A stretch of DNA of 64,000 bases from Paramecium tetraurelia. Taxonomy: Eukaryota. The number at the start of each line of letters is the position of its first letter. The first letter of the stretch is position 1. The notes beneath the pieces were generated by a model, which was given only the letters and a program-made list of their open reading frames with translations, was not told the origin of the DNA and did not search any database. Below are positions 46,964-52,458 of the stretch, piece after piece. The stretch spans positions 124,001 through 188,000 of the forward strand of contig CT868006.1 of the NCBI GenBank assembly GCA_000165425.1, in the 5' to 3' direction. Both the position numbers and the translations under genes were made by a program.

Positions 46964-48519
46964 ATGAAATCAAATTTAAGGGAATTATATCATGTAGAAG
47001 AAAATTAAAAAGGCTTTATAGCTTAAGGCGCATTCTCACATGTCTATGCATGTAGGAGGAAAAATGGAAATTAACAGGAACCTTTGTGTGTAAAGATTAT
47101 CAAAAAAAAAATTTATACAATGAATCGAACTTTATAAGAGATTGAAATATTGAATGAAATAAAACAGCTCAAATCTGAGAATCTTTTGCATATAGATCAC
47201 ATTAGTGAATCTGAATCACAATTTGAAGTAGTAATGGAAAGGTGTGATATGGATTTAGAATAAGAGTTCAAACTTTTAAAATCGAAAAACAAGTGGTACA
47301 CTGAGTAAGATTGCTTAAATATTGTAACATAAATTATGAATGGAATCCGTGTTTTATATAATAAGAATATTATTCATAGAGATATCAAACCTGCTAATAT
47401 TTTAGTGAAAATTATTAATACAGATAAGAATGAGCAAAAGAGAGTCTACTAAGTAAAATATTAAAAAATCAAAATAGATTGCAGATTTTGGATTTAGTAG
47501 AATTTTGAACGATTTTTGTGGTGTTGATTATTATACTTAATTGGGAACTCCACTTTATGCTTCTCCATAAATCTTTGGCTCAGAACCTTATTCAGGTAAA
47601 TGTGACATATACTCTCTCGGGATTTTATTTTATTAATTATTTTTTGAAGGTAATATGCCTAATTAATTGTAAACAAAAGGAGATCTCTTAAATTTCCATA
47701 AGACCCTCGAAAATAAATAGTTTAAATTTAATTCTCCAAAATATCATAATGCAAAACTTATAACTCATTTGCTCTAATTGATGATCGTCTATAAGGAAGA
47801 GGAGAGAATATCGTTTGAACAAATTTTTTAACACCAAATTCTTAAAATCAAAATTTCATTTAATTATTCTGATTCAATATTCAGTGAAGTTTAGTAGGGC
47901 GATTGTCTCAATAAACTATACGCAATGCAATTATAATTATACCGGAAATACCTGTTTTATAAATCGGTTTCTTAAAAATTAGTTTAATCTCAGTAAATTG
48001 AGGTGCAAGCTGCTTTATATTGTTTAACGTAATTAGGATTTAAATAACTTCATTTTTGCTTAGGCTTCATTCATATTATAATATCTGATATTCATCCTCA
48101 TTTCAACAAAGATAATATATACCCCTTATTGTAAGAATTGAAGTTATGCGAAATGAATATAGACAAACATCCTTAATATTAGTTGCTAATCAAAATAATA
48201 AAACAAAAATATTATTCTGAAAAGGGGGATTTGTAAAAATAAATGAACTAATTGGAAACTGAACAGAACTCTAATACATAGAAGAGTGAATCTATGAGGA
48301 CTTTTATGGAAATTTTTCAATTAAGTAAAAGTGCAAATATTGAACAAAAGTAGCTAACCGACCTACTTCAATTATTTTTAGAATAAAAACTTTTAATGTA
48401 ATAATTTTTTTAATTGAAGTGGATTTGAAGCTGATATCAAGAAGTCAATACTTTTGGAAGAGAGATTTCCAATTCAAAATAGTTAAGATATCAATCCAGA
48501 TGACATTTTTAAAGTCTGA
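46964..48519 (+). CDS. Ser/Thr protein kinase (ULK/ATG1-like catalytic domain)
   Basis: IAQGAFSHV, CVKII, HRDIKPANIL, ADFGFS, GTPLYASPQ and CDIYSLG. Confidence 0.9.
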
Positions 48520-48614
48520 AATTAATTAGGGGTTCTTTATTCAATTTTTAAAATGGTTAGTATATTTTTAGATTTACAAATTTTGTTTAGAATAAAAATA
48601 CTGTAATTTATAAT

Positions 48615-51600
48615 TCACATCAATCCAAAGCCTTCTGCATTATCTAAAGATATCATCAATTTATCCCTTAATGTTTCTTTCTTCTTGTATAGTGGCAATA
48701 ATAAAACATTGAAACAAGTGTGAGCTGATGGCAATTATTCAGTATCTAATATTATTAACGAATCTAACCTTCACCATGCTTTTAAATTACAAATTTTATT
48801 GACTTTAGTCCTCCTACAGGAATCCTATCTGTCCCTGTACAGAAAAACAGAAATCTCTTTTACATTTCAATACTCAAAGAATGAATACAACTCCAGAAGT
48901 ACCTATTAATATTCAATTAATCTAAACCTTATATACTCAGACTTATCATCGTAGCCATCATATTTTGTAACTAATTCCAAGTCTTTTAAGTCAAAGTGTG
49001 GCAAACCAATAATTAGTGCCTATAACTCTTCCCCAGAAAATAACTATTTATTGAAATACTCAATACTTTTATTCCATCTCCATCAACCACAGATTTAAAT
49101 CCTGAATGCAATAAATCAAACTAGCTTTTAACAAGTTTATTTAGGTACCAATCTGTATACAATTCTATATATTCTTCTCTATTCTCTTTTGTGACATTAA
49201 CTTAGAACCCATTTGGCTTAATATATAGATAAAATATCTATACTTTCAAATCATCAAAATATGCTTCTCCCCAAACAACATAACTTGCATTAAAATTGAG
49301 AGCAAGATTCGCAATTAAATTAGAATCTGTTTGTTCTCTCAAATACTAAAAACCTGTATATATTTCCATATCCAATTCCTTTAAATCCTCCTCTGTAACT
49401 TTTTCATTCTATAATTTTTTGAATAGAACAGTTGGGAATCTTACATCAAGCAACACCTAATTATAGAGAGCCAACCCTAACAATTTTCCGATCAATGAAT
49501 AGTATATTGGCATTTCAAATGACTTCGGATTAAACCAATACACTGTTCCATTGTTTTTCGGGATAAACATTCCATAATCTGGTGAAATCAGTTTCTCCAT
49601 CATCAACCTGAAAAACTCTCTTTTTGGACCTCCTTCATCTACACCTTGTTCTCCTATAAATTACACTTTCAAAGGGTTCTTTAATGGAATATGGGTTATT
49701 TATAATTATTTTATTGCTGATTCTATAATATTGTTTCTCTCAATCTATAAACTAAGATATGGAGCTTGTCCAGTAAAATGGTACTTTACTGAATGGCTCA
49801 TACTGTCGTGTTATTTGACTTTACAGTCTAGACTCAGCAACTTAGATTTAAACTCAATTGGAATAGACCAAGCATATAAACAAAAAGTAAACGAATAATT
49901 CCTCCATTGTTTTGCTGCATAATAACGAAATTGTGAAAACTCCTCTTTGTCAGCATCTTGTTTATACAATTTTGTTATTAGATCAATTACGAATTCTGAA
50001 GACTACAATCTAGTATTCATTTTGTTTGATTTTTGTAAGATTTGGAATAGTTCAAATAAACCAACCATTTTATAAGTATCTTCAATTTCCAGAAAAGGCA
50101 TTAAAGGTGTGTGTTACTGTCTTAGAATCTCAGAGTTAATTAATTTTTTAATCTTTTTTGTCGTATCTTCGAACTCTGCTTTTGACAGATTTGTAAACCA
50201 TCTAGATAATTATAATTTTTATTTCACATCAAGTCTTCTAATAATTTTTAATATTATTTATGATTTTTCATCGACAATATGTTCCAAAAATTAACGAAAT
50301 TGTAATATCAAATAGAGCGCTCTCAATTAATATAAGTTAGTTAAAGGTTCATAATTTTTTTCTTTTTAAGAAAATAAAATATTTATAATTAGAGTGAACC
50401 CTTTTTTGTAATTGAAGAATTTTGATTATGTTTCAATAATTAAATTAGTATCTACATCTGCATTCTATAAATCAATAGCATAAACGCCAGACTTATTGTA
50501 GAAATTTTCAACAAACGATGCTCCAAATATTTCCAGTTACTGAGAAATTTTGATTATGGCCTCTGGTAAATCCAGTTAAAACTCTGACATTTGTAATGGA
50601 ACCAATTTATTGTTGATGTTTTTTCCCTGATAACATAATTAATTCCAATTGACTTCCTCATTTTCTACCAATTATTAACAAATTCCTTTGATGTCATCTT
50701 AACTAAAATCTTGTTCAAGAAAACCATTGTTCAATTTACAATGCGGAAAGTCGCATACATATTTACCACAACCATTTAAAGCTCTATTGAACAAGAGTTC
50801 AGTATCAAGTTCAATTTACTATTATTCATCCATTTTATTAAACTGCCATTTATTTGACTCAAAATCTAAAATTAAACAATTATCTCTTTTTGATTATAGT
50901 TGAAAGACCATAAGAGTTTCTTGTAAAACATCACCATCAATTAGCATGGTTTGTTCCAACTATGATGTTATCAGATCGACATTGTAATTCTAATGTCTAG
51001 GTAACCAGATCCTGATGTTGGTTATTGGATTCTATTTTTATTCATCTTAGAATGTGGCTTTTAGTAAATCTAGCCAAGATTTAATTTCAGAATGATGGTC
51101 TACTTAGGCTTTTACACTATAAATTTTGTTGTCTCTTAAGGACTAGTAGATTAACGTAAACTAAAATTAATAAAATTGTATACTCGAGCCAAATTAGGAT
51201 AGACAACTTTTTTTTTTTCATTCTCTTAATAGAATCCAATCCTTTTCTATGGTTCAATTGATGAGTATTTCTCCTTAAATAGATCGAAAACTTCCTTAAG
51301 AATCTAGTTGTTTATCAATTTAATTTTTACGTATTCATAATCCCATTCATTTTCCAAATATCGAATACTGGAATTGTAAACATGATCTTCAGGTATGTAT
51401 TTAAACACCTTTTCATTGCTTTACAAATCTGAATTCATTTTATCAGGCTAATATATTTAAATTTCAATACTTTCTTTCTTGCCTCTTTCTATTGATCTCC
51501 CATTTCTTCATAATAATCCACATAATATTTCCATTATTTAACAAATTTTTTAGATACCAAATAGTACTCTATTCCACCTTTCTCCCTCAATGTTTTATCA

Positions 51601-51719
51601 TATCTCTATTGTAATCAAGTTAAATTTACTCTTCTTCCATCATCATATCTTTTGATTTCTTCATACTCAATTGGATCTCCTACTGGTTGGTGCCAATTAT
51701 GCAAGAAGTGATTAATCAT
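48615..51719 (-). CDS. HECT E3 ubiquitin ligase (UBE3A-like AZUL + HECT) with N-terminal DUSP-UBL module
   Basis: HECT motifs GEQGVDEGGPKREFF, FCTGTDRIP, catalytic LPSAHTCFN and EGFGLM*. AZUL-like GCGKYVCDFPHC lies near 50740-50780. The upstream frame is continuous from MINHFL at 51719 through a DUSP-like and a UBL-like segment. Confidence 0.88.
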
Positions 51720-52458
51720 CAAAATCAATATAATTTAGATTAGTATTAATTAAATTAATTCTCACATCTAAAAAGGTATTGAAAATGCAAATCAATTTCC
51801 TAACTACTATTCCATATTGAGGTTTCTGAATCCTTAATTTAGACGTTGAATCATTACATAAAAAATGGAAGGTTTGGATTACTTCAAAATATATTTGATA
51901 AATGGTACACTGACTTATTAATCGTTATTGCTTAAATTAGAAGAAAATCAGAGTTCTAGCAGAGTTCTATCTGGTCTCATATTTATATTAGAATTTAATT
52001 AGATTTTCGAATGTAAGAGAATTAAGAAATGAAAATTTATGGAAGAAAAAGAGAGTGTCCATATCAGAGAATTTTTGGACTAATATAAGAAATTTGAAGG
52101 GATGATATGTGATAAAGAAGCAGTTTCAAGCATTATTTAATTAACAGTTGATTTATATGAGTCATTATATTTGAACAATAGAATTAAATTTAAAAATATT
52201 GAATACTGTTGAATGTTATAAACATTTATTTTGTAGTAATGGATTGAAATAATACTACATAAAAAAGATCAGAAAAATTAGATCACTATTGAAAGAAATA
52301 AGTGAGAATAACATAAAAATAAAAATAGAGTTGAACTATTATAATATGGCATTTCTAATTAAATATTATGATTGATATCATAAAAATGCTATGTAGGATT
52401 TAAACAAAAGGTATAAATTACTGTATTTATGATATTATTAGCAAACTTAGTCATATAT

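Follow-up and report, generated by a model that had tools for sequence, protein, structure and literature searches.

Can a ubiquitin ligase carry the N-terminal module of a deubiquitinase and, if so, where in evolution was the module acquired and what might it be used for? This question is raised by a gene on the minus strand of a 64,000-nucleotide stretch of the Paramecium tetraurelia genome (contig CT868006.1, positions 124,001 to 188,000; hereafter the window, in whose own coordinates all positions are given). From the sequence alone, the original prediction read this gene as a fusion in which a DUSP domain and a ubiquitin-like (UBL) domain of the kind that forms the N-terminus of the deubiquitinases USP4, USP11 and USP15 precede the AZUL and HECT domains of a ligase of the UBE3A/E6AP type. 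DUSP is named for its presence in ubiquitin-specific proteases, and what it does in those enzymes is debated, with targeting on one side and regulation of the protease on the other. We find that 51719..48615 is one real, transcribed Paramecium gene for a DUSP-UBL-AZUL-HECT protein, with support for each of the four domains in the predicted order.

A single transcribed gene

The window is macronuclear DNA from the aurelia complex of Paramecium. In the ciliate code used by Paramecium, TAA and TAG specify glutamine, and the introns of this genus are tiny. When read accordingly (NCBI table 6), the minus-strand coding region 51719..48615 resolves into nine exons and eight introns and encodes 969 amino acids (aa) followed by TGA. 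The introns, which were placed by eye and then verified by script, are all GT..AG and 23-27 nucleotides (nt) long. The spliced coding sequence of 2910 nt includes 31 TAA and 15 TAG sense codons, and its only TGA is the terminal one, at 48617-48615; another in-frame TGA is located just 5' of the start ATG at 51719. The strings on which the original prediction was built (YYLVSKKFVKQWKYYVDY, PDKMNSDL, WDYEY, FDLFKEKY, IRIWL and CLILDFE) are all present in the translation, and the nine-exon model confirms that the frame runs open from the ATG at 51719 through 50833, interrupted by tiny introns and with no stop before MDEQQ. This last motif, which had looked like the start of a separate ligase, begins at residue 264, in the middle of exon 5. 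That exon consists of 639 stop-free codons, which leaves no space for one gene to end and another to begin at 50833.

The spliced product is identical, at 969/969 positions, to a public P. tetraurelia protein (P0151 = GSPATT00030689001 / XP_001427449.1 / A0BND4), a 978-aa model annotated as "HECT-type E3 ubiquitin transferase"; the sole difference is the 27-nt intron 3, which the public model retains as nine extra residues inside the DUSP domain. The orthologue from P. octaurelia, P0001, aligns without gaps and is identical at 946/969 positions, and 17 other Paramecium entries within the best 120 of 1673 matches to the HECT region (the set to which the counts of labelled relatives below also refer) are likewise annotated as a co-linear protein of 930-970 aa. 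Given that these 17 entries and a spliced contig, described next, agree with it, the gene model reflects more than chance.

The evidence of transcription comes from four sequencing runs, produced in three studies, that were aligned to the window. Two of these, X21 and X22, are raw oligo-dT RNA reads of 58 nt from one study; their coverage of bins 48554 to 51728 is confined to a single strand, the first mate always being plus, which in most stranded libraries denotes minus-strand RNA. Upstream of 51729, the read orientation flips, and a separate contig of run X4, at 51761-52100, lies on the opposite side of this flip; the 5' end of the transcript is therefore close to the ATG. That the opposite reads and contig begin only ~10-40 nt upstream of the ATG at 51719 suggests a divergent neighbour, with a very short intergenic region and 5' untranslated region. 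Another contig of X4, 1432 nt in length, aligns to 49871-51352 without any mismatch and with 50 gap letters, which coincide exactly with intron 4 (51161-51183) and intron 3 (51304-51330). Lacking both introns, it represents a spliced molecule in which the DUSP exons 3 and 4 are joined to exon 5 beyond 50833, so that transcript evidence does extend across 50800-50900. A separate transcription start or poly(A) site at 50840-50900, which the original prediction had named as the observation that would speak against a fusion, is not seen: the aligned runs contain no pile of read or molecule starts or ends in this interval.

Several aspects of these data weigh against so simple a picture. Run X4 is labelled RNA by guess only, and we take it as RNA because introns are removed in its contig. 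The raw 58-nt reads of X21 and X22 yielded no listed splice joints, and both runs have zero depth in bins 50205-50458, with a depth of 1-11 in the flanks. Some of the reads, moreover, come from a paralogue, as indicated by pairs of differences (50711 T>C and 50717 A>T; 49259 A>G and 49274 A>C) and by loose ends at 50737 and 49244 (window 50697-50737 and 49244-49274). The empty bins are covered by X3 and X4 contigs without differences, the stretch is very A+T-rich, and dips in depth count as no finding under the read-alignment method; the deviant reads most likely cross-map from a close paralogue of the gene.

The DUSP-UBL head and the UBE3A-type body

The case for a fusion turns on the first 263 residues, and here the expectation of a DUSP-like region followed by a UBL-like one holds, the DUSP being recognised by Pfam in 7/7 full-length relatives and the tandem by its fold. 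The Pfam scores for DUSP (PF06337, gathering cut-off 29.3 bits) come from relatives, from the public model P0151 and from exon 2 of the window. In the seven full-length relatives, P0001 (40.4 bits) among them, the domain scores 32.5-44.8 bits over residues ~38-136; P0028 and P0043, in addition to these seven, reach 41.1 and 50.2 bits, respectively, and exon 2 of the window on its own gives 20.2 bits (E 8e-4). The UBL emerges from an AlphaFold2 model of residues 1-332 of P0001, computed from a 32-row alignment (mean predicted local distance difference test, pLDDT, 82.2; predicted template modelling score, pTM, 0.75), in which the DUSP is followed by a beta-grasp with strands at residues 153-160, 167-174, 202-208 and 248-255 and helices at 180-194 and 215-225. 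When this model was compared with the PDB using Foldseek, ranks 1-15 were all occupied by DUSP-UBL tandems of USP15, USP11 or USP4 (E 1.4e-9 to 2.8e-7), which were matched over ~250 aligned columns with probability 1.00; there were 17 matches at E<=1e-3. The target-normalised template modelling (TM) score is 0.50-0.61 in 12 of the 15 top matches, and for the UBL part, ubiquitin and UBX chains rank lower in the list. The head thus resembles the N-termini of USP4, USP11 and USP15 (4a3p, 4mem, 3jyu, 5ok6 and 5ctr) in the order of its parts, DUSP and then UBL, with a beta-hairpin in between. It is unlike them in that it sits on a ligase, is followed by no USP catalytic domain and shares little sequence with them.

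Indeed, the identity to the USP modules in the Foldseek alignments is only 16-19%, which is the first of several points that count against an assignment to the USP4/11/15 type. Most of the top matches superimpose over the tandem with a root-mean-square deviation (rmsd) of 5.5-7.4 A, and 3 of the 15 (3pv1, 4mel and 3ppa) have a TM score of only 0.33-0.36 and an rmsd of ~19-20 A. No UBL family was called by Pfam in the scanned proteins, and the DUSP score falls below the cut-off in P0151 (27.2 bits) and in P. bursaria (26.3 bits). A profile of the N-terminal region yielded nothing significant among PDB sequences: its top match is an unrelated HGS chain (3zyq, E 0.045), and the USP15 and USP4 DUSP chains, which make up 11 of the 12 matches, appear at E 0.12-2.3. 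The sub-cut-off score of P0151 is likely to be explained by the retained intron 3, which lies inside the domain; in practical terms, intron retention in the public model pushes its DUSP under the Pfam cut-off.

A few weak, stray Pfam matches (NTP_transf_8, PI3K_p85B at residues 143-193 of P. bursaria, T6SS_FHA_C and DUF1638) were disregarded, and a feature-based search of the ESM Atlas returned no usable match. No peptidase family was found in Pfam scans of the whole proteins at either E<=0.1 or E<=1; with no USP (UCH) catalytic domain and a remainder that consists of AZUL, middle region and HECT, the protein is therefore not a USP.

That remainder belongs with UBE3A. Residues 264-332 are aligned by hhalign to the AZUL domain of Tetrahymena and other UBE3A proteins, with Cys285, Cys290, Cys295 and Cys330 as the presumed zinc ligands; the G-C...C...C...C pattern is invariant in 33/33 aligned Paramecium and UBE3A-type proteins. 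The AZUL model (window 50588-50851) has a pLDDT of 83.0, and a wide VIA-align search of 48,161 chains found only two at Z>=5, both of them UBE3A AZUL structures, namely, 6u19_B (Z 6.9, rmsd 2.1, 60 of 64 residues aligned) and 8ept (Z 5.4). Foldseek found nothing at E<=1e-3 for the AZUL model by itself, ranks 1-2 being again UBE3A AZUL structures, 2kr1 and 8enp (E 2.6 and 3.1). A point against the assignment is that Pfam AZUL (PF16558) scores 13.1-19.4 bits (13.1-13.7 for this gene), under the cut-off of 23.8, in every Paramecium protein scanned; unlike that of typical UBE3A, the Paramecium AZUL is too divergent for this threshold.

The HECT domain is unequivocal by Pfam (PF00632, cut-off 23.9 bits), with 192.6 and 55.2 bits on pieces of the window and 320 bits on residues 682-977 of P0151. 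The closest solved relative is UBE3A, with 303.7 bits over residues 565-969, compared with 214.7 bits for Rsp5; the match to full-length UBE3A thus sets in before the HECT domain, within the middle region. The catalytic Cys and the Phe at position -4 are established catalytic features of HECT ligases. Both are found here: H935, T936, C937, F938 and N939 are invariant in 17/17 Paramecium proteins and align with the UBE3A-type catalytic motif, and Phe is present at -4 from the C-terminus. Judging from these residues, the ligase is apparently catalytically competent.

To locate the border between head and ligase, a profile of 17 Paramecium proteins was compared by hhalign with one of 15 AZUL-HECT proteins, whose sources include ciliates, amoebozoans, animals and fungi; 669 columns aligned at a probability of 100 and E 7e-142. 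The match begins at residue 264 of P0001 and at residue 53 of Tetrahymena P0051; ordinary UBE3A homology starts at this point, and the first 263 residues are therefore an N-terminal add-on. From residue 264 to the C-terminus, the Paramecium protein is co-linear with UBE3A/E6AP, and the two have in common the four AZUL cysteines, the AZUL fold, the catalytic Cys and the -4 Phe. The 263 additional residues set it apart from UBE3A/E6AP, including the proteins of Tetrahymena thermophila (P0051, with 769 aa) and Protocruzia (P0138, with 720 aa). These two and the environmental P0048, the nearest relatives outside Paramecium, have AZUL and HECT without DUSP.

The distribution of the domain order points in the same direction. 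Among the 120 best HECT-region matches, 17 of the 18 Paramecium rows, from six species including P. bursaria, carry the precomputed labels PF06337 and PF00632, the exception being a shorter model, P0010, of 903 aa; PF06337 occurs in none of the 102 non-Paramecium rows, many of which have AZUL and HECT. The search of other ciliates for the same order thus recovered it in Paramecium rows only. When 40 rows were placed in a quick IQ-TREE tree by their C-terminal 420 residues, all 18 Paramecium proteins formed one clade (Shimodaira-Hasegawa-like approximate likelihood ratio test, SH-aLRT, 99), with Tetrahymena as its sister (82), followed by P0048 (99) and Protocruzia (96). Homology upstream of the HECT domain, the closest match to UBE3A and this nested position together place the protein in the UBE3A/E6AP subfamily. 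The claim that a ligase acquired a deubiquitinase-type module is sustained by the boundary at residue 264, by the nearest relatives that lack DUSP and by the nesting of the Paramecium clade, and the simplest reading would be a single gain of DUSP-UBL by the stem lineage of Paramecium once it had separated from the lineage of Tetrahymena.

Searches with the head itself reached no farther. A word-based homologue search with residues 1-265 retrieved only Paramecium proteins (8/8), and an exhaustive search of 1.84 billion representatives with the N-terminal profile retrieved only 19 proteins at E<=1e-3, of which two are Paramecium HECT proteins and the others short fragments. Pfam scans of 18 of these detected DUSP in 14, only HECT in one (P0010) and nothing in three; one of the fragments, P0011, spans the UBL-AZUL junction within 79 aa. 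The closest HECT-free DUSP-UBL modules among the 1.84 billion representatives are two environmental sequences, P0019 (308 aa, E 1.9e-5) and P0023 (358 aa, E 2.6e-4), in both of which Pfam calls DUSP. Unlike the Paramecium protein, these environmental contigs run directly after the UBL into a Cys-rich stretch and not into AZUL-HECT; they may be the N-termini of proteins from protists and may have a relationship to the module's donor, though it is not possible to identify them as the donor family. As far as the searches reach, the fusion so far appears to be confined to the genus Paramecium.

Separately, P. sonneborni has a DUSP-UBL-AZUL paralogue without HECT (P0008, 534 aa), in whose annotated product homology is lost after ~residue 470; the cause may be a frameshift that made it a pseudogene, truncation of the gene or an error in the model.

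The coordinates of all these features are collected in Table 1, together with the sequence identity of each part to P0001. Between the paralogue groups, DUSP and UBL are at least as conserved in these sequences as the ancestral non-catalytic parts of the protein, AZUL and the middle region.

Table 1. Parts of the gene at 51719..48615 in window coordinates. The last two columns give the identity of each part to P0001 in the ~960-aa paralogue group (group 1) and in the distant group together with P. bursaria (group 2).
Feature	Position	Strand	Basis or remark	Identity, group 1	Identity, group 2
DUSP domain, ~residues 38-140	51226..51584	-	exons 2-4 including introns 2 and 3; Pfam PF06337, fold	63-70%	29-36%
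UBL (beta-grasp), ~residues 150-260	50843..51198	-	from the end of exon 4 across intron 4 into exon 5; AlphaFold2, Foldseek	48-59%	30-38%
AZUL-type zinc-binding helical domain, residues 264-332	50627..50833	-	cysteines, hhalign, fold	49-58%	22-34%
Helical middle region common to UBE3A-type proteins, residues 333-620	49763..50626	-	hhalign	46-51%	26-31%
HECT catalytic domain, ~residues 621-969	48618..49762	-	exons 5-9; PF00632	76-82%	52-59%
Catalytic Cys937 codon (HTCFN)	48714..48716	-	alignment to UBE3A-type catalytic motif		
Exon 1	51719-51630	-	gene model		
Intron 1	51629-51606	-	GT..AG		
Exon 2	51605-51471	-	gene model		
Intron 2	51470-51448	-	GT..AG		
Exon 3	51447-51331	-	gene model		
Intron 3	51330-51304	-	GT..AG, 27 nt, in frame, no TGA		
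Exon 4	51303-51184	-	gene model		
Intron 4	51183-51161	-	GT..AG		
Exon 5	51160-49244	-	639 codons without stop, residues 155-793		
Intron 5	49243-49217	-	GT..AG		
Exon 6	49216-49067	-	gene model		
Intron 6	49066-49044	-	GT..AG		
Exon 7	49043-48928	-	gene model		
Intron 7	48927-48903	-	GT..AG		
Exon 8	48902-48769	-	gene model		
Intron 8	48768-48746	-	GT..AG		
Exon 9	48745-48615	-	gene model		

What the added head may do

We lean, if only slightly, towards a reading in which this single transcribed gene encodes a UBE3A-type ligase whose DUSP-UBL head was added once and acts as a docking module. Under this scenario, a tandem like that with which USP4, USP11 and USP15 begin would have been placed before the old start of a UBE3A-type protein and retained through later gene and genome duplications. 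The head would function as an autonomous docking module, binding partners as it does in the deubiquitinases, where these are short linear motifs and adaptor proteins. Through it, the HECT domain could be supplied with substrates, with an adaptor or with a location and would then ubiquitinate what has been brought to it, while AZUL would keep its ancestral role. Precedents for docking exist on the deubiquitinase side: SART3 binds USP4 and USP15 at the beta-structured linker that separates their DUSP and UBL (PMC4914101), and in a preprint (bioRxiv 10.1101/2025.09.22.676098), the DUSP-UBL of USP11 is described as binding [YFL]PxW[IV] and [LF]xx[LF][LVF] peptides. The original prediction conjectured that the ligase may compete with or oppose a USP on shared substrates. 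A more specific version of the docking idea is that the head shares its "address" with USP4/15-type deubiquitinases of Paramecium itself, through a common adaptor, such as a SART3/Prp24-like protein with HAT repeats, or through common short motifs. We consider such sharing unlikely. If it were true, one module would direct both the writing and the erasing of ubiquitin to a common set of substrates, and DUSP-UBL would be a targeting cassette that is independent of the enzyme to which it is attached.

Docking by the DUSP-UBL head has to be weighed against three other explanations, one of which denies that there is a fusion at all. Two genes might have been merged in the model, or the locus might mainly produce an AZUL-HECT protein from the internal Met264 (50833), given that residue 264 is Met in P. 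tetraurelia, that ordinary UBE3A homology starts exactly there, and that the raw reads, given their short length and low depth (~1-11), do not suffice to exclude a minor internal start. The position is not conserved, however: P0001 has V, and other paralogues have F or L here, so that an internal start is not a conserved feature; residues 155-793 are encoded in one stop-free exon, the X4 contig is spliced across 50833, and starts and ends do not accumulate at 50840-50900. To this can be added the persistence of the co-linear protein in 17 of 18 Paramecium entries, P. bursaria included, and the fragment across the UBL-AZUL junction. An annotation artefact or a pair of separate genes is, in our view, largely refuted and practically excluded, and a fusion that is only apparent is extremely improbable. 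Far more serious is the possibility, which we would entertain tentatively, of an action in cis on the HECT domain: instead of targeting the ligase, the head would autoinhibit it or help it to handle ubiquitin, for instance by covering a surface of the HECT domain that binds ubiquitin or by accelerating the release of ubiquitin. The same preprint (bioRxiv 10.1101/2025.09.22.676098), citing Clerici et al., reports that the DUSP-UBL of USP4 also regulates catalysis, the DUSP promoting the release of ubiquitin and working with the UBL at the active site; this speaks against a pure docking role, and because of it docking is not the sole precedent. The lower Foldseek matches, too, include ubiquitin, ubiquitin variants and a ubiquitin variant bound to the HECT domain of Rsp5 (5hpl_C), and the conservation of the module at the level of the non-catalytic ancestral parts would fit any functional role, this one included. 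What tells against action in cis is distance, since AZUL and a middle region of ~290 residues separate the head from the HECT domain, and the lack of relationship between the folds of the USP catalytic domain and HECT, owing to which a regulatory surface specific to USPs need not transfer.

The remaining explanation concerns the neighbour of the UBL. Many UBL domains bind ubiquitin receptors of the proteasome, and the structure that best matches the AZUL part shows human AZUL in complex with RAZUL from the proteasome subunit Rpn10 (6u19_B, Z 6.9). With the UBL located directly in front of AZUL, it is conceivable that it strengthens proteasome docking, providing two contacts instead of one. This reading leaves the DUSP domain unexplained, and the UBL in question is of the DUSP-linked type of USP4/11/15, which is described as binding peptide motifs (bioRxiv 10.1101/2025.09.22.676098) and SART3 (PMC4914101) rather than the proteasome; on balance, we regard a second proteasome contact as quite improbable.

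What is new in the fusion and what it offers

The original prediction was aware of no description of the architecture, and this stands only in part. A full-text literature search, judged on titles and the starts of abstracts, found no paper describing a DUSP-HECT protein. In two HECT/ubiquitin-system surveys and one review of Ube3a evolution (PMC3673628, PMC4327156 and PMC5339648), the words DUSP, Paramecium and ciliate have 0 occurrences in the main texts, the supplementary tables being places where the architecture could be listed. The protein itself, however, is public as the single entry P0151, and its Paramecium relatives already bear the PF06337 and PF00632 labels mentioned above, whereas the UBL and AZUL parts carry no Pfam label. 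What is new here, then, is that the head is a full DUSP-UBL tandem of the USP4/11/15 type; that AZUL is present, which makes the protein the Paramecium form of UBE3A; that the boundary of the addition lies at residue 264, with a single origin within ciliates as its simplest history; and that the public model P0151 retains intron 3.

The fusion bears on the debate over DUSP in the proteases. A DUSP-UBL tandem that came to sit on an enzyme of the opposite kind and was then kept across the diversification of a genus and several duplications, amounts to a natural experiment, and its retention argues for a function that is independent of the USP catalytic domain. Paramecium, in which RNA interference by feeding is routine, is a tractable system for finding the partners of the tandem. 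The known range of UBE3A-type ligases is widened as well, to include AZUL-HECT proteins in ciliates and an elaboration specific to one genus.

Downstream of the gene, an open reading frame on the plus strand (47409-48428) converges on its 3' end; the translation, which contains DFG and GTPxY motifs, resembles the C-terminal lobe of a kinase followed by a tail.

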